Shown here: in pieces, positions 3,279-61,270 of the stretch
Position numbering within the stretch: the first letter of the stretch is position 1
Layout of the letters: the number at the start of each line of letters is the position of its first letter
Assembly (NCBI GenBank): GCA_030583845.1
Contig: CP129478.1
Span: 779,686-843,685, forward strand
Reading direction: 5' to 3'
Source: Candidatus Dojkabacteria bacterium
GTDB taxonomy: Bacteria; Patescibacteriota; Dojkabacteria; SC72; JAHDCA01
Length of the DNA stretch: 64,000 nucleotides
Position numbers and translations under genes: made by a program
The notes under the pieces: model-generated
The model's input: only the letters and a program-made list of their open reading frames with translations
What the model was told of the DNA's origin: nothing
Database searches by the model: none

Positions 3279-3280
3279 TT

Positions 3281-8787: not shown

Positions 8788-8794
8788 CTTTCAA

Positions 8795-34378: not shown

Positions 34379-34430
34379 GTCAGCCCTGTGTAGGCCGTCC
34401 CGGGTCAGGGACGGCCTACACAGGGCTGAC
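34379..34430. repeat. Perfect 23-bp GC-rich hairpin in a divergent intergenic region
   Basis: GTCAGCCCTGTGTAGGCCGTCCC-gggtca-GGGACGGCCTACACAGGGCTGAC lies between the GT4 gene start and the response-regulator gene start. Confidence 0.7.
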
Positions 34431-34523
34431 CTCGATCGATTAATACCACCTTAATTGGTGGTAACATACAATAGTTCCTGAATTCGAAAGTCACTATCTA
34501 AATTCTTTTGTTTCATTCAAGCG

Positions 34524-35189: not shown

Positions 35190-35288
35190 CAAGTTCCGCT
35201 TTCCTTTTACGCGGAGATGCTATGGGCTATAACCTCGTGCATGCGAAATTATTATTGAATCTTAAGTGCGCGAGCGATAAAATAGTCT

Positions 35289-36155
35289 ATGTTTAAGCGT
35301 TTAAAGTATAACCTCATTATTGTTTTTACAGTCGTTGTGCTGTTTATACAGTTCATTACCGGCTTTGTGCTGATAATGTTCGAGGTGTATCTTGCCGATC
35401 TCACTTTTGACCAGTATATCCATAAGCTTGGATTCCTACTTTCTGAGGTATCGGTAACAACAATCGTCATATTGATGGTGGGCTATGTTTTCGTACAGGA
35501 AAATTTCAAGCCGGCCGAGGATATGGTGGCCAGGCTTAATCAATTTACCCAAGATGCCTCGCACGAGCTAAGGACACCACTGAGCAACGCGAACATAGCA
35601 CTGGACCTCGCTCTCAGATCCAAGAAGTATGAAGAGTATATTCGTGAGGCTAAGATGAGTGTTCGTGATGCAAACAATATTGTCGATAAGCTGCTGGCCT
35701 TGGCGAAGCTAGATAAGATGTCGCTGGACCGGAACAAATTTATGGCTTCTGAGAGTGTGATGCAGGTGATGGATATGTTCAACGAGCAGATTGCTGACAA
35801 GGGAATAAAAGCAGATGTGAAGCTGGATGAGAAGAAGGAGTTGGTCGGAGATTCTGGATTATTCAAGATTCTTGTCGCAAATCTGGTCGACAATGCAATT
35901 AAATACAATCTCCAAAATGGTGAGCTCAAAGTTAAGCTGACGAGTAAGAAGCTTTCAGTCGCTAATACTGGTAAAGAGATAAATGCTGTAGAGATGGGCA
36001 AGATATTCGATCGCTTTTATCAGACCGACGAGTCTCGATCAGATAAGGGATACGGGATTGGTTTGGCTGTTGTAAAGAAGATTGCTGACCTGCACAAATG
36101 GGAAATTCAGGTTGAAAGCAAAGATGGATTAACCACTTTCATTCTGGAGTTTTAA
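35289..36155 (+). CDS. Sensor histidine kinase (short, 2 TM)
   Basis: The H-box is QDASHELRTPLS and the G-box is GYGIGLAVVKKIADLH. It lies downstream of the response regulator gene. Confidence 0.8.
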   Translation: MFKRLKYNLIIVFTVVVLFIQFITGFVLIMFEVYLADLTFDQYIHKLGFLLSEVSVTTIVILMVGYVFVQENFKPAEDMVARLNQFTQDASHELRTPLSNANIALDLALRSKKYEEYIREAKMSVRDANNIVDKLLALAKLDKMSLDRNKFMASESVMQVMDMFNEQIADKGIKADVKLDEKKELVGDSGLFKILVANLVDNAIKYNLQNGELKVKLTSKKLSVANTGKEINAVEMGKIFDRFYQTDESRSDKGYGIGLAVVKKIADLHKWEIQVESKDGLTTFILEF

Positions 36156-36350
36156 TGATAATTTCATTAACATTAGGTGAAATTGTAGTAGTAGAGGATC
36201 TCTATTATGGGGAGATGTTACACCTATTGGCGCTGGAATACCTCAATTAGCACCTCTAAAAAAGCTTTTAAGTATAATGTAAACCTTAACCGCACCTTAA
36301 AGGGTAACGGACTACACTGATAATATAATTAAATTGTCAGGGAGGGCTAA

Positions 36351-36443
36351 ATGTTCAAAAGAACATTTCTCCGCGTTAGACGAGTAGAGATCTCTCGCTC
36401 TAATGTGAAGGCAATTAAGCACAAACCGAGGGATGCGCCTTGA
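36351..36443 (+). CDS. Candidate 30-aa basic small protein (MFKRTFLRVRRVEISRSNVKAIKHKPRDAP)
   Basis: A strong Shine-Dalgarno AGGGAGGG lies 4 nt upstream of the ATG and a terminator lies ~70 nt downstream. There is no recognisable homology; it is not L34. Confidence 0.25.
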   Translation: MFKRTFLRVRRVEISRSNVKAIKHKPRDAP

Positions 36444-36516
36444 GTTTTGTACGGATGGTAATCCTACGTGGGGATCTATCCGCAAAACTTAATAGCTATT
36501 TCTAAGGAAAATATGA

Positions 36517-36549
36517 AGACCGGCTTACAGAGTCGGTCTTTTTTTTATC
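36517..36549 (+). terminator. Rho-independent terminator
   Basis: GACCGGCTTACAGAGTCGGTC is followed by TTTTTTTT. Confidence 0.65.
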
Positions 36550-36551
36550 GA

Positions 36552-36662
36552 CCCCGCTAACCTATAGAGCATTGGTAAGGTTAAAATCTTAAGACAATTT
36601 AACACCTGTAATAAAAAACGTTGTACCTGCGCAAGCTTTATTATCATTATAGGTTAGCGGGG
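36552..36662. repeat. Inverted-repeat element, family CCCCGCTAACCTATAG (copy a)
   Basis: 15-bp terminal inverted repeats CCCCGCTAACCTATA...TATAGGTTAGCGGGG enclose ~80 nt. The right arm creates the spurious GTG start of the trxB ORF. Confidence 0.65.
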
Positions 36663-36712
36663 TGATCGAGCCAGGTGGTATACTGGTCATGAATAAATTT
36701 CGCCATATCGAT

Positions 36713-37645
36713 ATGTCAGATCAAAAAGTTCATGAATTAATAATTATCGGCTCAGGCCCAGCTGGACTAACAGCAGCAATTTATGCCGCACGTGCTGACC
36801 TTAAGCCGCTGCTTATTGCAGGCATCAAATTTGGTGGCCAGTTGATGGATACAACATTGGTGGAAAACTATCCTGGCTTTATTGATGGTGTAATGGGACC
36901 AGAGTTAATGAACAGCATGATGAAGCAGGCCGAGCGATTTGGCACAGAGGTTGTCTATAAGAACGCGGATAAGGTCGATTTCACAGGTGATGTTAAAAAA
37001 GTATATGTTGAAGACACCGAGTATCAGGCCAAGAGTGTCATACTCGCTATGGGCTCCTCGCCACGAAGGCTAAATATACCGGGAGAGCAGGAGTTCTATG
37101 GTCGTGGTGTATCTACCTGCGCAACCTGCGATGCAGCCTTTTATCGTGATAAAATCGTCGCAGTAGTTGGTGGCGGTGACAGCGCAATGGAAGAAAGCAC
37201 ATTCCTCACAAAATTTGCCAGTAAAGTTTATGTAATCCATCGCCGTGACGAGTTCAGAGCCTCAAAAGCGATGCAAAATAGGCTTTTTGAAAACAAGAAG
37301 ATAGAGGTGATCTGGAATGCAGAAGTCACTGAAGTAGTAGGGAGTGAAGTAGTTACTTCTTTAAAATTGCAAGACAACAACGGAAATTCACTCGACGATA
37401 TCACAGTTGATGGCATGTTCTTGGCTATAGGCCATATCCCAAATACTCAGATATTGGAGGGCCAAATTGAATTAGATGAGCAGGGATTTATAATTGTAAA
37501 AGATGGCCGCACCAAGACTTCAAACGAGGGTGTGTTTGTTGCCGGTGATATTAAGGATCATGTTTATCAGCAGGCTGTAACAGCTGCGGGTATGGGCTGC
37601 ATGGCTGCGATGGATGTAGAGAAGTGGCTTGAGAGCAAGAAATAG
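36713..37645 (+). CDS. trxB: Thioredoxin reductase
   Basis: The FAD site is IIIGSGPAGLTAAIYAARA, the redox site is CATCDAAFY and the NADPH site is VVGGGDSAMEE. The start is taken at MSDQKVHELIIIGSGPAG. Confidence 0.85.
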   Translation: MSDQKVHELIIIGSGPAGLTAAIYAARADLKPLLIAGIKFGGQLMDTTLVENYPGFIDGVMGPELMNSMMKQAERFGTEVVYKNADKVDFTGDVKKVYVEDTEYQAKSVILAMGSSPRRLNIPGEQEFYGRGVSTCATCDAAFYRDKIVAVVGGGDSAMEESTFLTKFASKVYVIHRRDEFRASKAMQNRLFENKKIEVIWNAEVTEVVGSEVVTSLKLQDNNGNSLDDITVDGMFLAIGHIPNTQILEGQIELDEQGFIIVKDGRTKTSNEGVFVAGDIKDHVYQQAVTAAGMGCMAAMDVEKWLESKK

Positions 37646-46602: not shown

Positions 46603-46854
46603 TTGGATGCGGAGGAGTTCTCAAAATTCCTGAAACATGGTATGGAATACCAGGGTAAAGGATACGCCACTGAAGCGCTGAATAGGCTGATTGAATTCTG
46701 TTTTAGTTTAGAAGGTGTTCATAAGATATTTGGAGAATGTGACAAAGAAAATATTGCCTCACAGAGAATCATGGAGAAGTGTGGTATGAAGTTCGAGCGC
46801 GAAGTAGAAGAGGGTGATGGAGTAGTGAGTATACAATTTAGTATTGAAAAGTAG
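46603..46854 (+). pseudogene. C-terminal fragment (~83 aa) of a GNAT N-acetyltransferase
   Basis: QGKGYATEALNRLIEFCF...IASQRIMEKCGMKFE is the GNAT motif A/B region, but the N-terminal half of the fold is missing. It begins inside a hairpin 60 nt after tRNA-Ala. Confidence 0.5.
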
Positions 46855-46865
46855 AGGAGTGGCTT

Positions 46866-47345
46866 ATGCCGCAAATTACTAATCGGTTTGAGCAGGGTAG
46901 AGGCTTAATATCTACGGAAACCTACTCACTTGGGGGATCGGATCTCTACAATAGAACGCCAAGTGAATTAGAGAAAAACAGTGCCGTCTTCATCTCAGCT
47001 GACCTGGACGGAACTGAAAGTGGGACGAGAATTCTCGAAGAGGTAACTAGATATTTTGGTGAAGCTGACTACGGTAGCCTCCTTGGGTTGCCAGGACGTA
47101 CGCAGTTTGATGAGGCCGCCTTGTTACAAAGTTTAACTCGTTCTACTCTGGTCACCATGAATAATCCATTGGATGAAGGGAGAAGGGTTGTACTAGTTGA
47201 TTTCTACTATGGAGAACAACGATATCTTGCTATTCAACATATATTCCCTACAGGTGAGCTTGCTTGGGCTTTCTTCCAGCGGCTGATAACTTTGAATAAA
47301 GTGTTTGAGCGCATCTACTTTTCACACCTTAGAGGTGGCATTTAG
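46866..47345 (+). CDS. Hypothetical protein (159 aa)
   Basis: The ORF is intact with no recognisable motif. Confidence 0.3.
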   Translation: MPQITNRFEQGRGLISTETYSLGGSDLYNRTPSELEKNSAVFISADLDGTESGTRILEEVTRYFGEADYGSLLGLPGRTQFDEAALLQSLTRSTLVTMNNPLDEGRRVVLVDFYYGEQRYLAIQHIFPTGELAWAFFQRLITLNKVFERIYFSHLRGGI

Positions 47346-47384
47346 CGACCTTTTTCATTCTGAGTCAAAGTCATTAGCAGCCAA

Positions 47385-48113
47385 CTATTGAGAATTGGAT
47401 TTAGTATACAGTTCTCCATCCACCTTCAACACATAGTCCATATTCTCAGCCACGAGCTCGTAGCTCATATCATATGTCTGCATAAATTCCTCATCATAGG
47501 TGTAAACACCGTAAACTGCTAGCTCCTCTAAGGAGCTAGGGTAGTATCCAAAGGCAAAAAAGTAAGTCTCTAGTAAATACTGAGTGTGGGTTGCTATGGT
47601 CACGGGATCTGTGTCCAAGGGCTGCTCATTGCTACCTGATGATAGATCTAGCGGCTCGTAAGAGTAGTCGATCGATCCAGTGTTGGCCTCAATTAAGTAG
47701 CTTTGGCCGTCATTTTGCAGTGTGTACGATACGTTGTAGTCCGAAATGAATTGTGTGTCATAAATCATGTAATCTGGATCTAGCTCCTCAAGAGATTCGG
47801 GGTAGTAACCATAATCCTCATAGTAAAAGTCGAGACTTGCATTGTAGTTCTCGATCGTAGTGTAGAAGAAAACCTGATCTGCATCCTCTGCCAATCTCTC
47901 TGCCCCTTCGGTCATATTCCGGATGAATATAAAGCCAGCATATGTACCGCAACAGCTACACAGTGCAAGAAATGCTAGCACCGCAACTACGATCGCTATT
48001 ACTTTACCATTCTTACTGCTCTTACTTGGTTTAACCTCCTGTGCTTCAACTTTTTTCGTTTCCGTAGGCTTAATCTCAGGTTGAACCTCTTTTTCGGGGA
48101 TAGAATTTTCCAT
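47385..48113 (-). CDS. Membrane-anchored protein with two tandem ~70-aa repeats (GYYP.SLEEL ...)
   Basis: A single TM VIAIVVAVLAFLAL is followed by the repeats YGYYPESLEELDPDYMIYDTQFISDYNVSYTLQNDG and FGYYPSSLEELAVYGVYTYDEEFMQTYDMSYELVAEN. It is a pilin/pseudopilin-like alpha-beta module without a prepilin leader. Confidence 0.4.
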   Translation of the reverse strand: MENSIPEKEVQPEIKPTETKKVEAQEVKPSKSSKNGKVIAIVVAVLAFLALCSCCGTYAGFIFIRNMTEGAERLAEDADQVFFYTTIENYNASLDFYYEDYGYYPESLEELDPDYMIYDTQFISDYNVSYTLQNDGQSYLIEANTGSIDYSYEPLDLSSGSNEQPLDTDPVTIATHTQYLLETYFFAFGYYPSSLEELAVYGVYTYDEEFMQTYDMSYELVAENMDYVLKVDGELYTKSNSQ

Positions 48114-48489
48114 AAAAATTTGTAATAAATTTACTCCTAGCTTTGCTCTACTAAAATTATACTTGTAATTATGGCTCTGTTCAAATATAATTCGAAGAAG
48201 CGACCAGGGAGAGTGTGAGCCTGGGTTTTTGAAGTGACCTCAGCCTTTGTGCTGTGACATGAGTGAAAATTTAATGAAAAGCGGTTGTAGTTTTACAACA
48301 ATCGAGGTGGCACCACGGTGATAATCGTCCTCTTTCTATTGAAATTATTTAGTAGAAAGCGTAGGGCGATTTTGTTTTTTAGCTTCTTAAACAGGTGGCA
48401 GTCGGAAGCTTATTAATTGCTAGGGCAAGGCCAATTGTTTAAGAATCCAAAAAACAAAAATAAGTGAATTAATTTTTGAGTTACACAAA

Positions 48490-50733
48490 ATGGAAACTAA
48501 ATTGGACAGAATATTGGCTCGGTCAACGAGCGAAAAAACCGGAGAGAAAGTTAAAGTATCAGGCTGGGTGGCATCGGTCAGAGACCACGGCCAGCTCCTC
48601 TTTCATCGACCTACGAGACTGGTCGGGACGTGTACAGCTAGTCGTAAACCCTGAGAACAAAGCAGCATTTGAGGTAGCCAAATCATCTGGGCAGCGAGTT
48701 TGTAATATCCGCAACAGGCGAGGTCGTTGAAAGAGACAACTCACTTCTAAATGATAAGCTTGGATACAGGAAAAATCGAGATAATCGTAGACGAGCTGGA
48801 GTTAATCAACAAGACAAAGCCTTTGCCATTCCCGATCGACACAACTGGCCATGAGATCGACGAAAACACTCGACTCGAAGTACCGATACCTAGACCTACG
48901 CCGCGAACGACTCAAGACAAACATGATAAAGCGACACAAGCTGATGCTTGCCGTCCGTCAGTGGATGGACAAGAACGGCTTCACCGAAATTACCACGCCG
49001 CTTCTTACAAGCACATCACCTGAAGGTGCAAGAGACTTCATGGTCCCTTCAAGAATTCATAAAGGGAAATTCTATGTGTTGCCACAGGCACCGCAGCAGT
49101 TTAAGCAGCTGCTCATGGTCGGTGGTATCGATAAATACTTCCAGATTGCACCTTGTGCGCGTGACGAGGACCCAAGAGCCGACAGGCATTACGGTGTGTT
49201 TTATCAGATCGACATTGAGATGAGCTTCCCGACAATCGACAGGCTTTTCTCAACCTGTGAGAACCTGATCAAAGAGACATATAAAACAGTCGCTCCCGAC
49301 AAGGAGATTATGGAATTTCCATTCCCTCGCATTCCACATGCTGAGGCTATGGAGCGTTTCGGCTCTGACAAGCCAGATATCAGATTCGGACTTGAGATGA
49401 AAGATATAACTGAGGTTGTAAAAGACAAAACTGAATTTAACATCTTCAATAGCGCAGAGGTAGTAAAAGCCATTGTGGCTGAGAGGGCAGGTGAGTGGAG
49501 TCGAAAAGAGATTGAGGATATGGAAACATTTCGCTAAAAGGTGAAGGCGCTAAGGGCTTGGCCTACACAAAGGCAGCAGGAGGAAAGCTCGAGGGTGGAA
49601 TTGGTAAATTCCTAGAACCGGTAACAGCAGAGCTTATCGAAGCAACTGGAGCCAAAGATGGTGATCTAATCTTTTTTGGTGCCGACGACCGCAAAATTGT
49701 AAATAAAGTATTAGGACAGGTACGTTCAAAGCTTGGAGACCTACTCGGCTTAAAAGATCCGAAGAAGTTGGCCTTTGCATGGATTACCGACTTTCCAATG
49801 TACGAAATAGACGAAAAGACGGGCAAAATCGACTTTGCTCACAACCCATTCTCGATGCCGAAAGGTGGGCTCGAGGCATTCAACAAGGAAAACCCGCTTG
49901 AGATCGAGTCAAACCAGTACGACGTCACTCTAAACGGCTTCGAGATTCTATCCGGCTCTATTCGAAACCACGACCCAGAGCTGATGGTGAAGGCATTTGA
50001 GATTGTTGGATACGGCGAAGAAGAGGTGAAGCGAAGGTTCGGCGGACTTTACAACGCATTCCAGTATGGAGCACCTCCACACGGAGGCTGGGCTATCGGC
50101 ATCGACCGTATGTTTATGGTATTTACTGAAGAGCCAAACATACGAGACGTTTATGCATTCCCGACAGCTGCAAACGGTGAAGACCTAATGATGAATGCAC
50201 CAAGCGAGGCATATCCAGAAGATCTGCAGGTTCTCGGCATTGAGATATCCGACAAGGGCGATCTAGTTGTGAACCAGATCCGAGAGCTAATAGACGGATC
50301 AGGAGCTGAGTACAAGTTTATGGAGCACGAGCCGGTACGCACATCAGAGCAGGCGGCTAAAATCCGAGGCACGAAAGTGAGTGAGGGTGCCAAGGCATTA
50401 GTGCTCAAATCACTTGAATATGCTGGCAAATACATAATGGTAGTCATCCCTGCTGATAAGCAGCTCGACCTTGAGAAAGTTGAAAAGGTGCTAGGCGAGA
50501 AGTTTGATGTCGCACCTGCCGAAGAGGTTGAGAGCTACACAGGAGTACAGATGGGTGGTGTGCCACCATTTGGTAGGCTGCTAAAGTTGGAGGTGTATTT
50601 CGACAAGCAGATGTGGGAGAAAGAGATGTCAGCCTTCAACTGTGGTAGGAAAGACAGATCCATCTATATGAAAACTTCTGATTTGATAAAACTTGTGCAG
50701 CCTAATAAAATAGCTGAAGAGTATACCAAGTAG
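48490..50733 (+). pseudogene. aspS: Aspartyl-tRNA synthetase with at least 5 frameshifts in its N-terminal half
   Basis: Collinear AspRS segments lie in different frames: METKL...VSGWVASVRDHGQLLF (frame 1), FIDLRDWSGRVQLVVNPENK (frame 2), SEFVISATGEVVERDNSLLNDKL (frame 0), TGKIEIIVDELELINKTKPLPFPID (frame 1), KYRYLDLRRERLK...FYVLPQAPQQFKQLLMVGGIDKYFQIAPCARDED...FR (frame 2), then YGN..GAKGLAYTKAAGGKLEG...FFGADDRKIV...GGLYNAFQYGAPPHGGWAIGIDR through to the end (frame 1). The shifts are near 48603, 48690, 48770, 48870 and 49527, mostly single extra bases in 2-3-nt homopolymers. Confidence 0.75.
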
Positions 50734-50799
50734 CTCTAGGTCCTGTATGAGCGAAAATGTATATCCAATATTAGATTTGCTGCAAAGCAGTGTCGGATC

Positions 50800-51891
50800 A
50801 TGGATAATAAAGCTGCCGAAAACAAGAGCTTGATAAATAGTAGCTTCCCATCTAGGATGGACGATAAGAAGATAGACAATGTCGTCAATCAGGTACATCG
50901 GTCTACTGGCTTTCACTATCCGAGGCGGAGACGACCAATTGTCATTGGCGCAGGAGTATTGCTGCTTCTGACTATATCCGGAATGGCAATCGCAAAGGCT
51001 GGATTTAGCAAGCCCGAAGTGCAATACCTCAGAGTAAGTAGCCCAGCTGAGAATTTCAGCGAAGAGCTCCCGGATGTTGCCGAGCCGTTTGATATGGAAC
51101 TTCGGGTGAGCGAATTAGATTTCACTGAAATAGATGCTTCATCAGTTTATGCCTACAATCCGGAATCGCATCAGGTTTATTATGAGAAGAATATCGATGA
51201 GAAGAGGCAGATCGCTAGCATAACCAAACTAATGACAGCAACAGTAGTGATAGATCAGTACGATTTTGAAAAGGAGATCGAGGTTACAGATGAGATGCTT
51301 GAGAGTTTTCCTGATGAGTTAAGTCATGTGATTGGCTTTGAAGACGGAGATAAGTTGAGCGTGCAAGAGTTGTACGACGCGATGATGATCAACTCATTTA
51401 ACGATGCTGCTGTGCTTTTGGCTGTTCTGCACCCATCAGGATACGATGGATTCGTCGCCGAGATGAATTCTCGTGCAGAGCAACTTGGCATGGCTAATAC
51501 GAAATTTGCGAACCCCCAAGGCTTCGATTCTGACAATAGCTATTCAACAGCTCGTGATGTACAGCGACTTGTCGGCTATGCGATGCAGTATGAAGAGATA
51601 ATGAGTGCAGCTCAGACTGTTAGCTCGCAGATGACGATAGAGCATGCAAATGGTGAAGTTGAGCAGGTCGACCTTGAATCAACCAACAAACTTCTTGGCA
51701 GACTGAAATATATGAAAGGGCTTAAAACAGGGTATACAGCTGAAGCAGGACCATCTCTTGTGGGTTACTTCGACGCAGGTGCAGAGGAGAAACTTGTAAC
51801 AATCGTCTTGGGTGGGAATGATAATCGATTTGATCTGACTGAAGAGCTTTACTACTTGCTTGGCAAGTCCTACTCACCCCCACCCCGCTAA
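50800..51891 (+). CDS. D-alanyl-D-alanine carboxypeptidase (PBP5/6-like, peptidase S11)
   Basis: An N-terminal TM precedes the SxxK motif SITK, the SxN motif SFNDAA and the KTG motif KTGYT. Confidence 0.8.
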   Translation: MDNKAAENKSLINSSFPSRMDDKKIDNVVNQVHRSTGFHYPRRRRPIVIGAGVLLLLTISGMAIAKAGFSKPEVQYLRVSSPAENFSEELPDVAEPFDMELRVSELDFTEIDASSVYAYNPESHQVYYEKNIDEKRQIASITKLMTATVVIDQYDFEKEIEVTDEMLESFPDELSHVIGFEDGDKLSVQELYDAMMINSFNDAAVLLAVLHPSGYDGFVAEMNSRAEQLGMANTKFANPQGFDSDNSYSTARDVQRLVGYAMQYEEIMSAAQTVSSQMTIEHANGEVEQVDLESTNKLLGRLKYMKGLKTGYTAEAGPSLVGYFDAGAEEKLVTIVLGGNDNRFDLTEELYYLLGKSYSPPPR

Positions 51892-51998
51892 CCTATAGCG
51901 ATGTCGGATCCCCAGATGATTAATTTCTGTTAAGGCCTTCAGGATAAAATCAGGATAATTTCCCTTTCTATATCCGCTATAGGTTAGCGGGGTGGGGG
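51876..51998. repeat. Inverted-repeat element, family CCCCGCTAACCTATAG (copy c)
   Basis: 24-bp TIRs CCCCCACCCCGCTAACCTATAGCG...CGCTATAGGTTAGCGGGGTGGGGG enclose ~75 nt. The left arm supplies the TAA stop of the carboxypeptidase gene. Confidence 0.65.
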
Positions 51999-52000
51999 AA

Positions 52001-53311
52001 TTACTGCTCTTCGGTAGTAGCCTCGACAGGTGCAGGATCTTGCAAGTTCTCATAATCGATCGCCGGAATATAGTAGTAGAACCTTCCCACTGCACCAGAA
52101 TCAAAAAATGCTTCCCCAATTACGATATAGATTGGCTGCATGAAATCGCGCTTCTCGCGCTCGTCTAAGTACGCAATTCGCACATCATTAACTGCCAGTT
52201 TGCCTACCGACTGAGGGGTATATGGCACAACATCATCACCATCTTTCTCGTTTAGATAGACAAGGCTTCCTTCCCCTTTGGCGATTCTGTTAGATACCTC
52301 GGTTGCTGAGATAAGAGGGTATGTACCACATGGCTCTGGCTCTACTATCCATGCATAATACTCGAGGCCGTACACTTCCTGCACATTTGGACTGGTCTCT
52401 TCAACCTGCTCGTTGGATGGCCCGATATAGATCGAAATATTCGATCGCTGCGTATCTTCATGCACTACCTCTGTGCTGAAGTTATATAGGTCAGCCTTGC
52501 CCTCATCTGTGCTAATCTGCTCGGCGCTATAGTCATAGTTGTGGAATTCCTGTTGTAGCTCCTCTTTTATCTCCTCGGCTCCGTCGATGTTGCTCGGGAC
52601 AGAGATAAATGGCTTTGTTCTATAGAAATCTACTCTAATTAGCTCAGCATCTCCGCGTGACCGTGCCTCAGAGAAGCTTCCATCAGGCTCGATATTTATA
52701 TCTGTAGTCTGTGGCTCCTCGGTTTTGTAATCTTGTAACATCCAGCCGTTGCTTTGGAGGAAGCTAATTGCCATCTGCTTTGCCTGTTCTGAGGTTGGCA
52801 ATTCGCCATCTGATGGGATTGCATTTGAATTTTTAAAATTCACCGACATTGTGAAATTTAATGAAGCTGCCTGTACTACAAGTGATCGACCAAAAGCATC
52901 CTCTTCCCAATAATATTCTGAAGCACCGCGCCTCTTGATCTGCTCGGGCTGGAAGCCGAATTTTAATGCGATCTTCTTGGCTTCATTTTGTGCACCTAAA
53001 AGCGCACCAGGGTTGTCATAAGCATAAACATTGGCAATGAGTGGGAGTTCTTCAATCTTACCGGTAGCCGTTTCGATTGTGAAAAATGGCTCATCTCCGC
53101 CAGAAAGTTCGAGGCTTGGTATCGATAGCCGGTGCTCCTGGAATTGCTCTTTTGTGTCTGTACAGGTATATGTTGGCTTCAAGTACCTTGGTACTGCGCT
53201 TTCCTCGGGCCAGTTCACAACGATAAGTGTAATCACTATGAAGGCACCAAATAGCACTGCACCAATCACTCCTAATCTTCTTGTCCAGTATGCTGATTCA
53301 GTTAATGTCAT
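52001..53311 (-). CDS. Hypothetical membrane-anchored extracytoplasmic protein (436 aa)
   Basis: It has one N-terminal TM and a large soluble domain. No family was recognised. Confidence 0.4.
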   Translation of the reverse strand: MTLTESAYWTRRLGVIGAVLFGAFIVITLIVVNWPEESAVPRYLKPTYTCTDTKEQFQEHRLSIPSLELSGGDEPFFTIETATGKIEELPLIANVYAYDNPGALLGAQNEAKKIALKFGFQPEQIKRRGASEYYWEEDAFGRSLVVQAASLNFTMSVNFKNSNAIPSDGELPTSEQAKQMAISFLQSNGWMLQDYKTEEPQTTDINIEPDGSFSEARSRGDAELIRVDFYRTKPFISVPSNIDGAEEIKEELQQEFHNYDYSAEQISTDEGKADLYNFSTEVVHEDTQRSNISIYIGPSNEQVEETSPNVQEVYGLEYYAWIVEPEPCGTYPLISATEVSNRIAKGEGSLVYLNEKDGDDVVPYTPQSVGKLAVNDVRIAYLDEREKRDFMQPIYIVIGEAFFDSGAVGRFYYYIPAIDYENLQDPAPVEATTEEQ

Positions 53312-53399
53312 CTCAGCTCGTTAATTCTAATTTGATAAGATATAATAGCACAGGAAATCAGTGTGATCATACATGATTTAGATTAAGAGAGGTTTACAC

Positions 53400-54974
53400 A
53401 TGGGAGACAAAAATGGTGGAGTTATTCGCGGTCGTGCAGCACCTAGCCCAACAGGGCGTGTTCATATCGGCAATATGCGTACTTTCCTTTTTAATTCGCT
53501 GTTTATTCGCCATAACAATGGCATAAATGTGCTTCGAGTTGAGGATACGGACCAGAAAAGGTCGGTAGAGAAGGGATTGGAGGGCATAATAGAGGTGCTC
53601 GAGCAGTACGGCATTACATTCCAGGAAGGGCCACACGTTGGAGGTGAGTATGGTCCATATGTGCAAACCGAGCGAAAAGATAGCTATAAAGAGGTAGCTG
53701 AAAAGCTTGTTAATGATGGGAATGCCTACTACTGCTTCTGCAGCTCCGAAAGGTTGGCGGCACTTAGAGAAGATCAAGTGAAGAATAAGGTTAAGCCAGG
53801 CTACGATCGGCATTGTCGAGACATAGCATCGGATGAGGCTCGCAAAAGAGTCGAGGCAGGAGAATCTCATGTTATCCGCCTAAAATTTCCAACTGAGGGT
53901 GAATTCAGGTATGACGACATTGTTTTCGGAGAGCTGAAGTTCAAGAACAAGGATATGGAAGATATCGTTATCTTGAAAAGCGATGGGCTGCCTACTTATA
54001 ACTTCGGCGTCGTAGTAGATGACCATGCAATGGCGATAACTCATGCAATGCGAGCCCGTGAATACCTCTCAGAGATCCCAAAAAATATCTTTATATACCG
54101 CTCGCTGGGCTGGGAGCCAGCAAGATATATCCATGTGCCAGAGGTGCTTAACCCAGATGGGAAAGGAAAGCTAAGTAAGCGCAAAGGTGCATTGCCTGCT
54201 ATCTCCTATCTCCGTAAAGGATACCTAGTTGAGGCTATGATTAATTTCCTGGCGCTGCTTGGCTGGTCACCATCACCGGAAAACGCCCACGAGGATGAGA
54301 TCTATAGCGAAGATGAGCTGGTAAAATTTTTTGATGAGTCCAGAATTAATCGTGCCCCTGCTCGTTTTGACCAGCGCAAGCTTGATTATATGAATGGGAA
54401 GCATATTCGAGCTATGAGCATCGACCAGTTGGCAGATCGTGTAGTTAGGTGGGCTGAGGATCTGGTATTAAAGGAGTTTATAACCGACATGTACGAGGAG
54501 AAGATGGAGTGGGAAGTAGCGCTTAAAGCCTCGGTAGAAAGTGCCTTGCCAAAATGGAAGGCAGATATGGAGTATTTCAAGAAGGCTTTGACACTGGTAC
54601 ACGAGCGGCTTGTTTACCTAAGCGAGATCCCTGAGCTTCTCAACTTTATCTATGCAGATGAACTGGAGATGTCTGACGAGGTATGGAACTTCAAGAATCA
54701 CGACAAGGCAGAGACAGCTGCTGCGCTAAAAGGTGTTCTACCAAAGCTAGACGAGGTATTTGCCAACGGAGTGAATGACCATGAGGCATGGGAAGAGAGT
54801 GTAAGGGGCTATGCGGATGAGATCGGGTGGAAGCATGGCGATCTTTTCATGGCAATCCGATCGGCCACAACGGGTGCAGTTAAGAGTCCACCGCTTTTTG
54901 AGAGTTTCCAGGTAATGGGATGGGAAAAGGGAAGAGGGTTTATGGAAGCCGCGGTCAAATATCTTGAGTCTTAA
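53400..54974 (+). CDS. gltX: Glutamyl-tRNA synthetase
   Basis: The class I HIGH motif is PSPTGRVHIGN and the KMSKS motif is KLSKRKG. It has GluRS-type architecture. Confidence 0.9.
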   Translation: MGDKNGGVIRGRAAPSPTGRVHIGNMRTFLFNSLFIRHNNGINVLRVEDTDQKRSVEKGLEGIIEVLEQYGITFQEGPHVGGEYGPYVQTERKDSYKEVAEKLVNDGNAYYCFCSSERLAALREDQVKNKVKPGYDRHCRDIASDEARKRVEAGESHVIRLKFPTEGEFRYDDIVFGELKFKNKDMEDIVILKSDGLPTYNFGVVVDDHAMAITHAMRAREYLSEIPKNIFIYRSLGWEPARYIHVPEVLNPDGKGKLSKRKGALPAISYLRKGYLVEAMINFLALLGWSPSPENAHEDEIYSEDELVKFFDESRINRAPARFDQRKLDYMNGKHIRAMSIDQLADRVVRWAEDLVLKEFITDMYEEKMEWEVALKASVESALPKWKADMEYFKKALTLVHERLVYLSEIPELLNFIYADELEMSDEVWNFKNHDKAETAAALKGVLPKLDEVFANGVNDHEAWEESVRGYADEIGWKHGDLFMAIRSATTGAVKSPPLFESFQVMGWEKGRGFMEAAVKYLES

Positions 54975-55038
54975 GACTCTCGGAATTTCGCTTGATAGAG
55001 GGTTATTTGTTTGGTAAACTATGTCCGTTAATCGACAT

Positions 55039-55109
55039 TGCCGGGTCGTCTAACGGTAGGACGTTGGTTTCTGGCACCAATAATCGGGGTTCGAATCCCT
55101 GCCTGGCAA
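55039..55109 (+). tRNA. tRNA-Gln (CTG); CCA not encoded
   Basis: The hand fold has a U1:A72 acceptor TGCCGGG/CCTGGCA, a D-arm like bacterial Glu/Gln tRNAs, anticodon stem TTGGT/ACCAA with loop TTCTGGC, and T-loop GGTTCGAATCC. Confidence 0.7.
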
Positions 55110-55131
55110 CTTTACATTTCAAAGCTTCAGA

Positions 55132-55281
55132 ATGATTAAAGCAATCTGTTTCGATCTCGATGGAGTATATTTCACACCTGATAGTTTCAAGCGATTTGTA
55201 GAGGCGATGAGCGTCAACTCTACGATCGAAAGAGCTGAGTTTGTCCTTAATGAGCTGGCCAAGCTAGGCGTAGTACTATAG
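55132..55281 (+). pseudogene. N-terminal fragment (49 aa) of a HAD-family hydrolase
   Basis: MIKAICFDLDGVYFTPDSF... carries HAD motif I DxDG, then stops after 49 aa. It is 23 nt downstream of tRNA-Gln. Confidence 0.4.
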
Positions 55282-55324
55282 TGAAGAGAGTGCCCCATAT
55301 TGAGACAAAGCGTATAATCCTGGT

Positions 55325-56545
55325 ATGTCATTCAGAAGACGATTAATAAATATCCTCTGGCTTACAATGCTCGCCGGAATCTGTGGAGTTATAATAACCT
55401 CTATATTTCTCTACGATAGAAGCAAGACTCAAGATCGAATCAAGGGAAGCTCTGTAATTGCTACCGATCCAGCAACTGTTGAGGAGGAAGCGGTGTCTGA
55501 CATTCCCCCGTGCTGCGACGCACAGATTGCAGCATACATATCCCAGATGAGTCTTGAAGAGAAGGTTGGGCAGCTTTTCATATTCGGATTTCAGGGAAAT
55601 ACTCCAACCCCTCACATTTTGCGCTATGTGAGTGAGTATAAAATCGGTGGGGTGATGCTTCTATTCTATAACCTTCCCGACGATCCTACTGCCAGAAATA
55701 ATATCGCAGCGCTAAACTCTCATGCTGTATCTACCGGTAATAGCATCCCACTATTTATGGCTGTCGACCAGGAAGGCGGTACTGTGAATGCGTTTAGATA
55801 CTGGGATGCAGCACAAAAGATTGGTCAGAAGCAGCTTGAAAGCGAGCAACAGGCCAAAGAGGTTGCAATTGCGAGATCGAATGCCCTCAAATCTATGGGT
55901 GTGAATATAAATTTCGCCCCGACGGCGGATTACATAACAAATCCAGCGTCATTTCTATACAGGAGGAGCTTTGCGGGTGATTCGGGAAATGTCGGTAAGA
56001 TGGCAAGCGCTATGATATCTGGAGCTGATGAAGCAGGGATTGTGACTAACCTTAAGCATTTCCCTGGGCATACTAATTATGCTGTAGATACACACAAAAA
56101 TCTGGCCTCATTTACTGTGCCAGAGCAAGAGATGCAAGAGTCATTAAATAGTTTCTCGATTTCATTAAAAAATGCAGATCCGGATATAGTAATGATGGCA
56201 CATGTGAGGTACGAAAACTACGACAGTGAGGATATTGCCTCGATGTCAGACTTCTGGATTAGTGAAAAGCTGAGGGGAGAGCAGCAGTATAATGGCATAG
56301 TAATTACAGATGATATGACTATGAAATCTGTGACTAAAACTTATGGCGTAAACGATGCTGCAGTGAAGGCGATATTAGCAGGCAATGATATTCTTCTGTA
56401 CGTTGGCTCGCCAGATATGCAATCTGATGCATACAACGCTGTCATAAATGCCGTGCATGATGGTACAATTAGTGAAGAGAGGATTAACCAGTCACTCTTT
56501 AGAATTCTGAAGCTGAAAAATGAGAAGCTAGGGATGCAATTTTAG
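55325..56545 (+). CDS. Glycoside hydrolase family 3 beta-N-acetylhexosaminidase (NagZ-like), membrane anchored
   Basis: An N-terminal TM precedes GH3 N-domain motifs VGQLFIFGF, LFMAVDQEGG and KHFPGHT. Confidence 0.8.
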   Translation: MSFRRRLINILWLTMLAGICGVIITSIFLYDRSKTQDRIKGSSVIATDPATVEEEAVSDIPPCCDAQIAAYISQMSLEEKVGQLFIFGFQGNTPTPHILRYVSEYKIGGVMLLFYNLPDDPTARNNIAALNSHAVSTGNSIPLFMAVDQEGGTVNAFRYWDAAQKIGQKQLESEQQAKEVAIARSNALKSMGVNINFAPTADYITNPASFLYRRSFAGDSGNVGKMASAMISGADEAGIVTNLKHFPGHTNYAVDTHKNLASFTVPEQEMQESLNSFSISLKNADPDIVMMAHVRYENYDSEDIASMSDFWISEKLRGEQQYNGIVITDDMTMKSVTKTYGVNDAAVKAILAGNDILLYVGSPDMQSDAYNAVINAVHDGTISEERINQSLFRILKLKNEKLGMQF

Positions 56546-56557
56546 CTACTGCCACAA

Positions 56558-57196
56558 ATGAAGATTTTTAATAGCTCAATATTTGACAGGCAAAACAATG
56601 GTAGGGTGTTGATAATACTTCTGGGCGTCAGTGTGACCCTAATGCTCTCGGCCGCATCTGATAAGATTATCAGCAGCTCGTTTCCTCATAGATTGGTGGT
56701 AGACGATATTATATTCAGGCTTTTTGCTACACCACGATCGCTTATCTTCGAGTATTACACTGACGTAGTACTTATAAGCATGATAGCGATCACAGTCTGG
56801 GCTTGGAAAGACGATATGAAGCAGTATTTCCCATATCTGGCTGTAAATGCATGTCTCTTCTACAGCACAAGAGCGATTATAAATGTGCTGACACCTCTTC
56901 AGAGGCCTCTTGGTGATGCTATATCGCATGGGTTGCTTCGGGATATCGCGATACAGTACGGGATGTTCCCTTCGGGGCATGTCGGCTTCGCTGTCTTGCT
57001 TTTTCTGCTCACCAAGGATCGTATAGAGATGAACCTTCGCAACATATTATTTGTGTTAATTGCCTTTCAAGCCCTGCTCATGGTAATTACTCGCGGACAT
57101 TACAGTATAGATGTGGTAGGCGGGATACTGCTGGCGTATTTTGTGTATAAAATCCTGCAGCCGTACAAGGAGAGATTGGTCTTCTACAGCAAGTAG
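56558..57196 (+). CDS. PAP2-family membrane phosphatase
   Basis: The motifs are ...LQRPLGD..., FPSGHVGFA and TRGHYSIDVVGG, i.e. KxxxxxxRP / PSGH / SRxxxxxHxxxD-like, over ~6 TM. Confidence 0.7.
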   Translation: MKIFNSSIFDRQNNGRVLIILLGVSVTLMLSAASDKIISSSFPHRLVVDDIIFRLFATPRSLIFEYYTDVVLISMIAITVWAWKDDMKQYFPYLAVNACLFYSTRAIINVLTPLQRPLGDAISHGLLRDIAIQYGMFPSGHVGFAVLLFLLTKDRIEMNLRNILFVLIAFQALLMVITRGHYSIDVVGGILLAYFVYKILQPYKERLVFYSK

Positions 57197-57250
57197 CCGA
57201 TATGGTAATATGGTGGACATGCCCGCCTAAGTTAAAAGTATGAAATAAGT

Positions 57251-57529
57251 ATGAAGAGAGGAATAATCGAGGTGTCACATGCGGAAGTTGATGAGATTTT
57301 GAAAAGGGTTTCGCCTGCTGTGTATGAAGGCACTCCACTTGAGTCCAAGCTAAATGCAATAATGATTTCAGACGTTGATCCAGTTAATCTGGAGATATCC
57401 GCCGAGGAGCTCGAAGTAATTCTGGATGAGATAGCCATACCTGATCCGGCAAATGACACCGAAGACATCAAATCTATCAGGAGGAAGATTCAGCAGAAAA
57501 TATTAGAATTTCACGGTAACGGGGAATAA
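57251..57529 (+). CDS. Hypothetical small acidic protein (92 aa)
   Basis: The ORF is intact; no family was recognised. Confidence 0.3.
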   Translation: MKRGIIEVSHAEVDEILKRVSPAVYEGTPLESKLNAIMISDVDPVNLEISAEELEVILDEIAIPDPANDTEDIKSIRRKIQQKILEFHGNGE

Positions 57530-57557
57530 GTACGAGGCTAATGAATTTCTGTTAGCC

Positions 57558-58100
57558 TTACAGGTTCTCAGCGTCTACGCCAGTAAGCTTGGTAAATTGC
57601 AGCACTGCCTCCTCAAACTCTATACCATCTGATACCGCTAGCTCACCTGCGATATTGCCAATAGCAGTCTTCATGCTCTTCGAGATGCTCACAGGGATCA
57701 ATCGGCCCTCTTTCTCACGAACCTTGATGACATAGTTACAATACTGGATTGCTTTGATAAATGACTCAATCGAAGCCTCCTCTAGGAGTGTATCGATCTC
57801 GGTAATGATATCGTTGTAATCCTGGCTTGGTGGCTTAAGATTAGGGGTCTTCTTTAGAGGTTTAACCTTCTTCTTGATCGACGCAACTGATTCAACAGGA
57901 CGGACGCCCAGCATTGCGATGTTCTGAACTGGTGTGGAAATTGTAAGTGAGCTATTAACGAACTCAAATTCGTAATATCTCTGCTTCTCGCCGCCGAATT
58001 CTATCATCCGCTCGCGGACTACATGGCCTGCGCCGTGTGATGGGTAGAAAACTTTGGAATTTATGTCTATTGAATGCTCCGTGTTCTTTGCCTTCTTCAT
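57558..58100 (-). CDS. CarD/CdnL-family RNA-polymerase-binding transcription factor
   Basis: The N-terminal RNAP-interaction domain is VFYPSHGAGHVVRERMIEFGGEKQRYYEFEF..., a CarD_TRCF-like Tudor fold, with a helical C-terminal domain. Confidence 0.65.
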   Translation of the reverse strand: MKKAKNTEHSIDINSKVFYPSHGAGHVVRERMIEFGGEKQRYYEFEFVNSSLTISTPVQNIAMLGVRPVESVASIKKKVKPLKKTPNLKPPSQDYNDIITEIDTLLEEASIESFIKAIQYCNYVIKVREKEGRLIPVSISKSMKTAIGNIAGELAVSDGIEFEEAVLQFTKLTGVDAENL

Positions 58101-58246
58101 TATCGTAGATTATAACACAAAAGAAAGCTTATTGCAATAGGATTTTGTGTGTTGCGCGATCCCTTTGTTCAGTGTACACTGGATTAATTTGGATTGCAAA
58201 TAATCGATTGTAGCAGTAGGGATAATCTTAGACTGAAGAGTTTAGT

Positions 58247-60190
58247 ATGAGTGGAAATACAATCACGAGTCAAGAAGGCGAGAGGTCCGAGGCAGGTCAA
58301 AGCAATGGTATTAGTGCAACTCTGTCTGAAGCCGCACGATCTTATTCTGGTAATGACGAAGATAGGTTGAATATAGGAAAGATTTATGAACAGATATATG
58401 GTGGAAGCGACGCTGCACCTAAGGAAGAGCTACTGTCAGTTAGGACATATAACAGTGTGACTGCTTTAGCAACAGTATTGCAAGAGTGGTATGCGTTAGC
58501 GGGTGACGTACAGCCACCTCACCCTTCTAGAGATGAAATCAATAAAAAGATGGCTGATCAAAGCAATCGGCTTTATGCAGCAATGCTGGTGGAAGTAGAA
58601 GAAGGCTCGGCTGAAAGGAGGCTTCTGGAGTCAGCGCTAAAAAGTGCGAGCACTTTGGATGGTGAAACGGAGCAAGAGGTAGTCTCATCAGCGCATAAGA
58701 GTGTAAATACTGCTCGTGACAAGGCGATAGCTGAGTTACGTCAGGCAAAGGAAAACGCCACAAAATCACTTACAAACAAAGAAGTGCAGTATAGAGAATT
58801 GGAGGAACGTATGTCTCGGGTTATAGAAGATAGGGAGGCGGAAGATGGTACAATACCGAAAGTTAGCGAGCTAGAGGCAGAGACCAGAAGGTATGTAGAA
58901 CTCTCTCAGCAGGTTCTCCCACTTCTAGTTAATTCTGATCTCTCAGATCAGCAACTGTCCCAAGAGATTGACTTGAAAATTCAGGATATCGCTTTAATGC
59001 CTACCGTACCTGAAGGTACTTCCCCACTTGATACTAGGAAGTTGCTTTTAAATTATATCTCTCGCGTTGGTCTCGAATTAGATGATATTACAAGCAAGTT
59101 AGAAAGTGACAAAATCAGCTGGACTGGCAGTAATATTCGTGATGCAATAACTCAGCATAGATCTCAAAGCCAATTGCCAGGATTACAAGATATTTGGGGA
59201 GTAATTTCAGCGTATGAAACCTCGAAAGCCTTATTTGACAGTAGAATTTCTGATGAGACATCTGTTTTACAAGAGATCCTTGTAGAATTGGGGCTGAGTA
59301 GAGAAGATGTACATGGACTAACAGTTGGTAATCTTGCTGCTCTCGATGGTTGGATAACATCACTAGGGGGTATGGAGATTTCTGCACCAGATCCAGTTCA
59401 TGTAAATAGAATCCTTGAAAGTAGGAGACAATTAAACACCTTTGCTTCAGATCAGCAAGTTGTATCTGAAACGAAGGTGGCAGGAGTCGAAGAAAAAGAA
59501 CAGCAGATAGCCCACCTAGCGTATGATGCTCTGGTTGCGGTGGAGAAAGATCTTGAGCTGAAAGAGAAAGTAGCTCGACAAGAGGCAGCAAATGCGGACC
59601 TTCAGAGACAAATTTTAGAACTTCAAGCGCAGCTTGCTGCTTCAACTGCTCAGATTGCCGATCAAGAGGAGACAATAGCGAATCTCACAGCGCGACTAGA
59701 GACACTTCAGAGTGCACCGGCAGTTGTGAATGGGCAAGTTACCCCGGACGCCAGTTCAGTTACCACAACTGTTACTGCAGGTGAACTAACACAGGATGAG
59801 GAAGCAGCTCTGCAAGATCTCAAGGCGAGGATGGAGAATCTAGGGATTAATACCCTTACCGCGCCTGTTACGCCCTTCGTGGATGTAATCAAACTCCTTG
59901 GACGCCGAAGTGAGCCATTATATGTAGTCTTGAGCAGTAATGGCAATTCTGTACAAATAGATTTGGTAAAGGTCGCAAAATTTGTTGATCGAATCGTGTC
60001 TAATGATCGTGTCAACTTGTCTAATTATGTGGGGCAGTATAGCATCCAAAGCAAGCAAATAGTGCAGAGTCTGATAGGTGACCAAGAATTGTATACAATC
60101 CAAGGAAGTGAGGGCTACAACCCACCGCAGATCTACACATTCGTTTATTACCTCATCCAAGGCTATGCGAAGCGTGTCGGAAAGATTTAA
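58247..60190 (+). CDS. Large coiled-coil hypothetical protein (647 aa)
   Basis: It has long heptad-like stretches (e.g. ELQAQLAASTAQIADQEETIANLTARLETLQ) and no enzymatic motif. Confidence 0.4.
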   Translation: MSGNTITSQEGERSEAGQSNGISATLSEAARSYSGNDEDRLNIGKIYEQIYGGSDAAPKEELLSVRTYNSVTALATVLQEWYALAGDVQPPHPSRDEINKKMADQSNRLYAAMLVEVEEGSAERRLLESALKSASTLDGETEQEVVSSAHKSVNTARDKAIAELRQAKENATKSLTNKEVQYRELEERMSRVIEDREAEDGTIPKVSELEAETRRYVELSQQVLPLLVNSDLSDQQLSQEIDLKIQDIALMPTVPEGTSPLDTRKLLLNYISRVGLELDDITSKLESDKISWTGSNIRDAITQHRSQSQLPGLQDIWGVISAYETSKALFDSRISDETSVLQEILVELGLSREDVHGLTVGNLAALDGWITSLGGMEISAPDPVHVNRILESRRQLNTFASDQQVVSETKVAGVEEKEQQIAHLAYDALVAVEKDLELKEKVARQEAANADLQRQILELQAQLAASTAQIADQEETIANLTARLETLQSAPAVVNGQVTPDASSVTTTVTAGELTQDEEAALQDLKARMENLGINTLTAPVTPFVDVIKLLGRRSEPLYVVLSSNGNSVQIDLVKVAKFVDRIVSNDRVNLSNYVGQYSIQSKQIVQSLIGDQELYTIQGSEGYNPPQIYTFVYYLIQGYAKRVGKI

Positions 60191-60227
60191 TGAAACCCCT
60201 ACACTGATTTAGGTGTATAATCCCACC

Positions 60228-61214
60228 ATGAAAATCACAATCATCGGTGGAGGCACAGGAAGCTCCGCTGTCCTCAACGGCCTCAAGAAATACCCCGATC
60301 TAGACCTAAATGTAATAGTCAGCATGGCCGACGATGGTGGTAGTAACGCTGTAATTCGCGACGAGTTCGGTCTCCTTCCTATGAGCGATCTGCGAAAGTC
60401 GATAATCTCGCTCTCAGAGCTACCAAATAACGACAAGTTGCGTGAGCTTTTTACATACAGATTTGCAGAAGGGGATGGGTTAAGGGGACATACATTGGGC
60501 AATCTTATGATGATTGCGGCTAATTCAATCAATGGCTCCGAGAAAGAGGCGTTGGAGTATATCTGTGAGATATTTAGAGTTAAACATAATGTTATACCTG
60601 TGACATATTCTGACTCGCGATTATTTGCAAAGTTTTCTGATGGGTCGCAGATTAAAGGTGAGCACCTGATTGATGAGCCTGAAATAGCTGATGGTGTTAA
60701 GCTTGTGGAGTTTTGGATGGAGCCAAAGTCTGAGGCCAACCCAGACGCTGTGAAGGCAATCCAAGAGGCAGACTTCATAATAGTGGGTCCAGGGGATCTT
60801 TATACAACCACTTTAGCCAATATAATTGTAGATGGGATTGTTGATGCCATATGCAAGTCGAAGGGGAAGAAAATCCTGATTACAAATATCATGAGCAAGG
60901 TGGGCCAGACTAAGGGTATGAAGCAGTCCGAAATTGTCGCAACATTTGGCAAATATTGTAAGTGCAAATTCGACTACCTGTTGGTCAACTCAGAAAGCAT
61001 CCCCGATCGTGTCATTAGCTACTATAAAGAGCACGGCGAGCATCTGCTCGAAGATGATCTTGATGACTCTGTAGGCAAGATTATCCGAGCCGATCTTATT
61101 GCCGATGAGATCTTCGAGAGAGATAAGGGTGATGATCTGGTGAGAAGCATGGTGAGGCATGACAGCGACAGGCTCGGCTGGGAGCTGTACAAGCTCATGA
61201 AAGAGGGCCGCTAA
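60228..61214 (+). CDS. YvcK/CofD-family (UPF0052) protein
   Basis: ITIIGGGTGSSAVLNGL...VIVSMADDGGSNAVIRD matches the family. The start is taken at MKITIIGGG; the ORF is open from 60213. Confidence 0.75.
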   Translation: MKITIIGGGTGSSAVLNGLKKYPDLDLNVIVSMADDGGSNAVIRDEFGLLPMSDLRKSIISLSELPNNDKLRELFTYRFAEGDGLRGHTLGNLMMIAANSINGSEKEALEYICEIFRVKHNVIPVTYSDSRLFAKFSDGSQIKGEHLIDEPEIADGVKLVEFWMEPKSEANPDAVKAIQEADFIIVGPGDLYTTTLANIIVDGIVDAICKSKGKKILITNIMSKVGQTKGMKQSEIVATFGKYCKCKFDYLLVNSESIPDRVISYYKEHGEHLLEDDLDDSVGKIIRADLIADEIFERDKGDDLVRSMVRHDSDRLGWELYKLMKEGR

Positions 61215-61215
61215 C

Positions 61216-61270
61216 CCGACCACCCGACCACTTGCTTCGCAAGTGGGTCGGGCAAGTGGTCGGGGGTCGG
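61216..61270. terminator. GC-rich compound palindrome between convergent genes (likely a bidirectional terminator)
   Basis: CCGACCACTTG-cttcg-CAAGTGGGTCGG is followed by a second CAAGTGGTCGG arm. Confidence 0.5.

Follow-up and report, generated by a model that had tools for sequence, protein, structure and literature searches.

Frameshifts that break a recognisable gene are known from several settings. In nanopore assemblies, the errors that classically persist concern the length of homopolymers and occur throughout the genome. The release factor 2 gene, prfB, is read through a +1 shift at one site, CUU UGA C, which holds an in-frame stop, is preceded by an upstream Shine-Dalgarno (SD)-like element and is conserved across bacteria. 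True pseudogenes, such as those of reductive or host-dependent genomes (Mycobacterium leprae, recent insect symbionts), evolve under relaxed selection and carry nonsense mutations along with both insertions and deletions. Here, we consider aspS, the gene of aspartyl-tRNA synthetase (AspRS), in a 64-kb stretch of a Candidatus Dojkabacteria genome (contig CP129478.1, positions 779,686 to 843,685; hereafter, the window), deposited as a single-contig metagenome-assembled genome (MAG) with locus tags that begin with QY318_. The first kilobase of this gene is broken by six extra bases, and we consider it probable, at about 85%, that aspS is intact in the organism and that these bases are a consensus or polishing artefact of a strain-mixed community. 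That small indels cause frameshifts in metagenomes assembled from long reads is a recognised problem, stated in two sources, one of which presents proovframe, a frameshift-correction tool (10.1101/2021.08.23.457338), while the other discusses nanopore MAGs (PMC9262707).

The breaks in aspS are a case of the known indel-induced gene fragmentation of metagenome assemblies, with an unusual link to strain-variable tracts. As with the residual indels of long-read MAGs, single-base indels split conserved genes, are found in one assembly only, do not occur in accurate short-read assemblies of the same population and leave the protein otherwise perfectly conserved. Unlike such indels, events of the aspS type are insertion-only, mostly G or C, in several cases outside homopolymers, and confined to strain-variable tracts. 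The locus resembles prfB in that an essential gene of translation can be read only through a +1 shift, but the six contexts in aspS are unrelated, the sites lack a stop, and they are not conserved even in a sister strain. As in the pseudogenes of reductive genomes, several frameshifts interrupt a gene that is still recognisable, in a bacterium that has a small genome and probably depends on a host; in contrast to them, the aspS tract combines a ratio of nonsynonymous to synonymous divergence (dN/dS) of 0.04 with insertions only, in an essential gene that is single-copy within the window. As for the enzyme itself, the closest described system is the bacterial-type class IIb AspRS under T-box control, with which the gene shares the OB domain, the class II core, the GAD domain and a leader with T-box sequence, terminator and antiterminator. 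It differs by a fused YbaK/ProX-like domain and by a T-box Stem I that is drastically short.

The gene lies in the window as follows:

48490-50733, forward strand: aspS, bacterial-type AspRS, 745 amino acids (aa) after six extra bases are taken out

This region holds collinear pieces of one AspRS spread over three forward frames, the path along the gene being 1 > 2 > 0 > 1 > 2 > 1. The frame switches that had been pointed out in an earlier, sequence-only reading of this DNA are thus borne out, as is its statement that the downstream 1.2 kb is intact, 49558-50733 being a single clean open reading frame (ORF). The NCBI annotation splits the gene into WKZ30944.1 (84 aa, hypothetical) and WKZ30945.1 (228 aa, 'amino acid--tRNA ligase-related'); for the 391-aa C-terminal piece, an exact look-up found no protein record, and exact look-ups of the aspS fragments found nothing outside the NCBI record. 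Once corrected, the protein presents an OB anticodon-binding domain (PF01336, E=5.5e-18), a class II core (PF00152, E=1.2e-105) with a GAD insertion (PF02938, E=2.1e-23) and a C-terminal YbaK/ProX-like tRNA_edit domain. It is 85% identical over 99% of its length to P0001 (745 aa) and 83% identical to P0002 (747 aa), both full-length AspRS of related Patescibacteria, and it differs from the intact allele of the contig L086, introduced below, at 14-15 residues, all of them conservatively. These matches indicate a bacterial-type AspRS that is collinear with full-length orthologues. At each site, either of two bases can be considered the extra one, and taking out either always leaves an open 745-aa frame, such that the corrected protein can take only two forms, which differ in residue 345 (Thr or Asn). 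Neither of the two had a match in an exact look-up.

The evidence base of this analysis is the deposited consensus compared with assembled contigs, about 47 kb of the window being comparable with independent contigs. Two of these, L086 and L087, are Logan contigs of two other samples (DRR779145 and DRR779146, respectively). A DNA alignment of aspS with three intact orthologues (L086 and the more distant L001 and L002, the latter two with 85% mean column identity to the window gene) yielded six single-base insertions and zero deletions. In the list below, the slash separates the two candidates for the extra base:

48603-48604, forward strand: extra base 1, ctcttT/Catc; +1 shift; gap against L086, L001 and L002; either removal gives Phe
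48685-48686, forward strand: extra base 2, aaatcA/Tctggg; +1 shift; removal restores K-S-L-G-S-E, the Leu being conserved in all orthologues
48759-48760, forward strand: extra base 3, gataagC/Ttggat; +1 shift; placed by orthologue alignments
48876-48877, forward strand: extra base 4, cgactC/Gaagtac; +1 shift; within the conserved RLKYRYLDLR motif
49527-49528, forward strand: extra base 5, gaaaC/Atttc; +1 shift; the sole site where the choice of base alters the protein (Thr or Asn, residue 345)
49535-49536, forward strand: extra base 6, cgcT/Aaaagg; +1 shift; together with base 5 mimics one -1 shift

The polarity of these events is given by L001 (745 aa) and L002 (747 aa), which also do without all six bases. 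Where five frameshifts had been counted before, there are six +1 insertions, as the presumed fifth consists of two (49527/8 and 49535/6) that lie 8 nt apart and add up to a net +2. The locally extreme density that had been noted for the first ~1 kb is real and far above chance: of the 12.75 kb compared with L086, only the first 1,047 nt of aspS contain gaps, six in number (probability under uniform placement, 3e-7), with no extra base in the remaining 11.7 kb. The trait common to the aspS sites is their position within haplotype-specific sequence. Every one of the six lies at most 4 nt from a single-nucleotide polymorphism (SNP) between haplotypes and outside three blocks, 366 nt in total, in which the haplotypes are identical (p=0.015). 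No slippery motif is common to the six, which have neither an in-frame stop at the shift nor an upstream SD-like stimulator.

The sequence-only reading had considered at least four of the events as extensions of short homopolymers, and thus as homopolymer-length errors of sequencing or consensus. This stands in part, since site 1 can be read as tt to ttt, site 6 as aaa to aaaa, and site 3 either as t to tt or as the g to gg that had been proposed. It does not stand at site 2, where gg to ggg would replace the Leu conserved in all orthologues and the alignments place the event at tcA/Tctg, nor at site 4, where a to aa would replace the conserved Lys of RLKYRY and the alignments place it at ctC/Gaag. 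As a general cause, homopolymer miscalls were therefore rejected, as they fail not only at sites 2 and 4 but also at an extra G (19153) that interrupts a TTTT run and at most events of 18031-18380, two further places in the window that are described below. Another conceivable origin, by which both alleles of a SNP would have been written in tandem, was dropped as evidence. At five of the six sites, the codon stays synonymous whichever base of the doublet is kept, but this is not above random insertion, with a random-insertion simulation matching equally (p=0.36).

Selection on the broken tract was assessed after frame correction. Codons 1-376 present 116 differences from L086, distributed over the three codon positions as 19/5/92, corresponding to a dS of 0.55, a dN of 0.022 and a dN/dS of 0.04, and the corrected tract contains no stop codons or nonsense substitutions. 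In the 3' half of the gene, there are 16 differences from L086, all of them synonymous. These values point to strong purifying selection on aspS along the whole divergence. In a decaying pseudogene, one would look for relaxed selection and for a mixture of insertions and deletions, whereas here 92 of the 116 differences are at third positions and all six lesions, polarised by three outgroups, are insertions. Six independent indels in 950 nt of neutral DNA should presumably come with many nonsynonymous and nonsense substitutions, because substitutions usually outnumber indels.

Over most of the ~47 kb compared, the identity between the window and the independent contigs is 99.9-100%, and the alignments are gap-free. 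Both L086 and L087 keep the gene order of the window and are nearly 100% identical to it outside variable tracts. L086 holds an uninterrupted aspS of 745 aa, and L087 ends within the gene. The alignment of 48490-61243 with L086, and likewise with L087, has 98.9% identity and exactly six gaps, these being the extra bases of aspS. The mismatches are distributed unevenly, with ~113 SNPs in 48490-49700, ~20 more up to 51104 and two in the next 10 kb, which delimits the following tract:

48490-49700, forward strand: mosaic tract in which aspS has a diverged haplotype, with 113 SNPs relative to the intact allele of L086

Three blocks of identity (48959-49089, 49247-49314 and 49358-49524) interrupt this tract, in which both L086 and L087 carry the other haplotype. 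Upstream of the aspS start codon, the identity to L086 drops to 75%. As the SNPs are uneven, as the upstream identity is this low and as the gene content there differs, the 5' kilobase of aspS is the edge of a strain-variable region, where the window carries a diverged haplotype. A comparison with orthologues of sister genomes had been proposed as a check; in L086, L001 and L002, aspS is in frame and without the six bases. For the window haplotype itself, exact-pattern scans of JGI metagenome contigs gave no match, and a scan of genome contigs gave only relatives at 59% identity or less.

The same error class is found elsewhere in the window, regardless of gene function and in each case within strain-variable DNA or next to it. 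Relative to the independent contigs L089 and L090, the segment 18031-18380, which comprises the N-terminal remnant of a DUF4238 gene and the spacer adjoining tRNA-Asp(GTC), contains 17 insertion events (20 nt) and zero deletions; nearly all of the inserted bases are G or C, and there are hardly any substitutions before 18339. This cluster puts the region of the DUF4238 HHxxP motif out of frame, and nine inserted bases in the ORF restore the frame downstream. The extra G at 19153 splits a hypothetical gene of 240 aa into ORFs of 187 and 91 aa. When it is removed, the 240-aa protein is identical to that of L089, to which the flanks are otherwise 100% identical. Likewise, one extra C at 30249 splits an RND/AcrB-type transporter into pieces of 261 and 645 aa; this protein is intact at 888 aa in the contig L099 and also in the more distant homologues P0143 and P0144. 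The transporter gene (27500-30603) is a SNP-rich tract throughout, and a 15-nt in-frame indel near C30249 (30325-30339) is a genuine strain difference. All of these events are extra bases that are present in the window only and absent from the independent assemblies, with the removal of G19153 and C30249 restoring full-length genes. The giant ORFs near aspS are indeed clean, as had been noted, but aspS is not the sole broken gene, since the RND transporter, the 240-aa gene and the segment 18031-18380 are affected too. The sole single-base deletion seen, at 34489, is considered a genuine strain difference because it is also carried by the independent contig L100, which matches the window at 99.985%.

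L100 belongs to a sample, SRR24881069, that is especially relevant here. Contigs of this sample match the window at 100% identity over 1-11556 (L092), 14643-17349 (L091) and 46620-48209 (L098, window-specific island included), and with one mismatch over 30604-37359 (L100). None of these four contigs crosses an affected tract. L091 ends at the last base shared before an island and L100 ends at 30604, beside a SNP at 30603; the end of L098 at 48209 is the end of the last 31-mer with a window-specific base, sequence shared with L086 beginning at 48180. The ends of L091, L098 and L100 thus coincide with points at which two haplotypes, if present, force a de Bruijn graph to branch. Because the contigs end exactly at such branch points, SRR24881069 appears to contain both haplotypes at exactly those tracts where the MAG consensus has extra bases, and it probably represents the source community or one closely related to it.

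The explanation that we favour would then be the following. The 5' kilobase of aspS is the right-hand edge of a strain-variable region, and the source community would harbour two or more haplotypes of it. Wherever the sequence is specific to one haplotype, the assembler or polisher would have had little or conflicting read support and may have left spurious single-base insertions there, while sequence shared between the strains would have been polished clean. We infer both that the assembly was made from error-prone long reads and the exact step that created the insertions. Of the two options that had been left open before, an error of sequencing or consensus or a decaying gene, the former is preferred because a near-identical strain has the gene intact in independent assemblies, because dN/dS is as low as 0.04, because all lesions are insertions and because the same defect recurs at strain-variable tracts of this assembly. 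The best explanation is thus that aspS is an ordinary, essential, T-box-regulated AspRS gene and that the frame breaks are no biological feature of it.

Some observations weigh against this explanation and should be considered along with it. The spectrum is insertion-only and G/C-rich, with G or C accounting for about 18 of the 21 or so added bases and with no deletion, which is not the classic homopolymer-deletion signature of nanopore consensus sequences. None of the six sites is covered by an independent assembly of the haplotype that the window carries, as L098 stops 280 nt upstream of the aspS start, and the copies that lack the lesions, in L086 and L087, represent the other haplotype in the 5' tract. 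In addition, G19153 lies in sequence that is otherwise identical between the strains, and hence not every error is within a SNP tract.

If the lesions were genuine, aspS would be a very recent pseudogene, with Asp-tRNA supplied by a second synthetase or with the lineage being a dead end or dependent on co-resident cells. This would agree with the presence of the lesions in the GenBank record, where NCBI annotated the fragments as separate proteins, with the lack of an independent assembly of the exact haplotype over the sites and with truncated HAM1 and DUF4238 fragments beside another island, which tell that some real decay exists. We nonetheless consider it quite unlikely. Six indels would have accumulated without relaxed selection (dN/dS 0.04, ~19 nonsynonymous changes over both lineages, no nonsense), and all six are +1 insertions, although bacterial mutation spectra are deletion-biased. 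Moreover, identical insertion-only lesions occur in unrelated genes and in a spacer of the same assembly, the leader, terminator and start codon of aspS are intact, and a search for a second aspS or asnS, which the sequence-only reading had advised and which covered the 64-kb window, found no paralogue there. A variant in which the window haplotype has six real +1 insertions in its only aspS and lives on shared or host Asp-tRNA or enzyme beside an intact sister strain, or in which some mutational process inserts G or C into strain-variable DNA of this Candidate Phyla Radiation (CPR) lineage, is to be taken as very improbable. Rescue of a real allele by programmed +1 ribosomal frameshifting, or by transcriptional realignment, at six sites is hardly conceivable. 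It is true that each break is +1 and that skipping one base restores the conserved protein; the sites, however, have no common slippery motif, in-frame stop or SD-like stimulator, neither the sister strain nor any orthologue contains the breaks, virtually no full-length enzyme would be made if six low-efficiency events had to succeed one after another, and the same lesions are found in a non-coding spacer. The lack of conservation effectively refutes programmed frameshifting, and neither it nor decay, as had been proposed before, is supported for a gene under purifying selection with insertion-only lesions and no conserved shift motif.

A different question, within the artefact explanation itself, is whether the aspS mosaic is a chimeric consensus that flips between haplotypes, for instance because short-read polishing converted mappable blocks only, in which case no single cell would carry the corrected sequence. 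Identity blocks of 68-167 nt alternate with blocks of 10-15% divergence, and at a dS of 0.55, ~10 differences would be expected in a block of 131 nt where 0 are observed; in addition, both haplotypes are in SRR24881069 and the extra bases are in divergent blocks only. However, similar mosaics arise by natural recombination where an imported island ends, and the downstream SNPs (49602-51104) are clean, of the synonymous type and indel-free. We consider such a chimera possible but somewhat doubtful.

If the extra bases are artefacts, as we favour, this serves as a caution that a 'complete' single-contig CPR genome in GenBank can contain clusters of spurious insertions where co-existing strains differ. 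Such insertions make an essential synthetase, a transporter and other genes look like pseudogenes; unless they are corrected, pseudogene counts would come out too high, and a symbiotic lineage could be taken, wrongly, to have lost AspRS. Were the lesions real, an obligate symbiont without AspRS would be notable, but the evidence says otherwise. Of more interest than the frameshifts are the AspRS-YbaK fusion, the short-Stem-I T-box in a CPR lineage and the tRNA-linked variable islands, to which the remaining observations refer.

The upstream region of aspS contains the following features:

48163-48191, forward strand: promoter-like site, TTGTAA, 17-nt spacer, TATAAT, the TATAAT being invariant in four leaders
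48191-48335, forward strand: T-box leader of aspS, RF00230, 47.5 bits, E=1.7e-9, with a very short Stem I
48323-48380, forward strand: T-box terminator hairpin; the minimum free energy fold gives a 21-bp-class hairpin, then the U-run UUUUGUUUUUU; conserved in all four leaders
46650-48180, no strand assigned: strain-variable island between tRNA-Ala(CGC) and the aspS leader

What had been described as an AT-rich spacer of 360 nt is thus not anonymous sequence; it is a conserved T-box leader with its terminator, with a match to RF00230 in four Dojkabacteria-related lineages. The same match lies upstream of aspS in L001 (4480-4631), L002 (3982-4131) and L086 (12819-13029, reverse strand). The T-box sequence, AAUCGAGGUGGCACCACGG, is invariant in the four orthologous leaders, and its bulge, UGGC, matches the G73-CCA end of the window's tRNA-Asp(GTC). 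The leader also presents two conserved GUGAC motifs, each containing GAC. As is characteristic of T-boxes, terminator and antiterminator are mutually exclusive and located upstream of an aminoacyl-tRNA synthetase gene. As ~65 nt of Stem I are absent, the leader reaches 47.5 bits, less than the Rfam gathering score of 93, and for this reason a short-Stem-I T-box would escape standard annotation. All of the elements needed for aspS expression, namely the promoter, T-box leader, terminator and start codon, are intact and conserved.

The 'mini-island' linked to tRNA-Ala in the sequence-only reading proves to be a strain-variable region, the right edge of which runs into aspS. In the window, the island holds genes of 159 and 242 aa, confirmed at 100% identity by L098 (46620-48209), while that of L086 holds an acetyltransferase gene, genes of 112 and 148 aa, and a 242-aa gene, the acetyltransferase and the two small genes taking the place of the 159-aa gene. 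The 242-aa membrane protein common to both islands is only ~75% identical at the DNA level.

The C-terminal extension of AspRS corresponds to the following feature:

50326-50694, forward strand: YbaK/ProX-like aminoacyl-tRNA editing domain, AspRS residues 611-733, PF04073, E=7e-28

The solved structures nearest to this domain are 1wdv (APE2540), 3op6, 2cx5 (TTHA1699) and that of YbaK, 2dxa. The AspRS-YbaK fusion is common among the top Patescibacteria matches; other close AspRS (~590 aa) are without the editing domain. A literature search found no description of this fusion.

A second strain-variable spot is found at 17349-18171. In the window, a HAM1 (non-canonical NTP pyrophosphatase) fragment of 138 aa (17393-17809) abuts an N-terminal DUF4238 fragment of 113 aa (17824-18165), whereas L089 and L090 have an intact 298-aa DUF4238 gene at this locus instead; the full-length NTP pyrophosphatase in a Logan cluster member is 187 aa. 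The arrangement in the window may reflect a genuine rearrangement, or else two strains may have been joined into a chimera. Finally, a long, near-perfect intergenic hairpin is located at 34377-34432, of which L099 carries the reverse complement. The loop reads GGGTCA in the window and TGACCC in L099, with the stem mismatches swapped to match, which suggests that this palindromic element has been inverted between strains.

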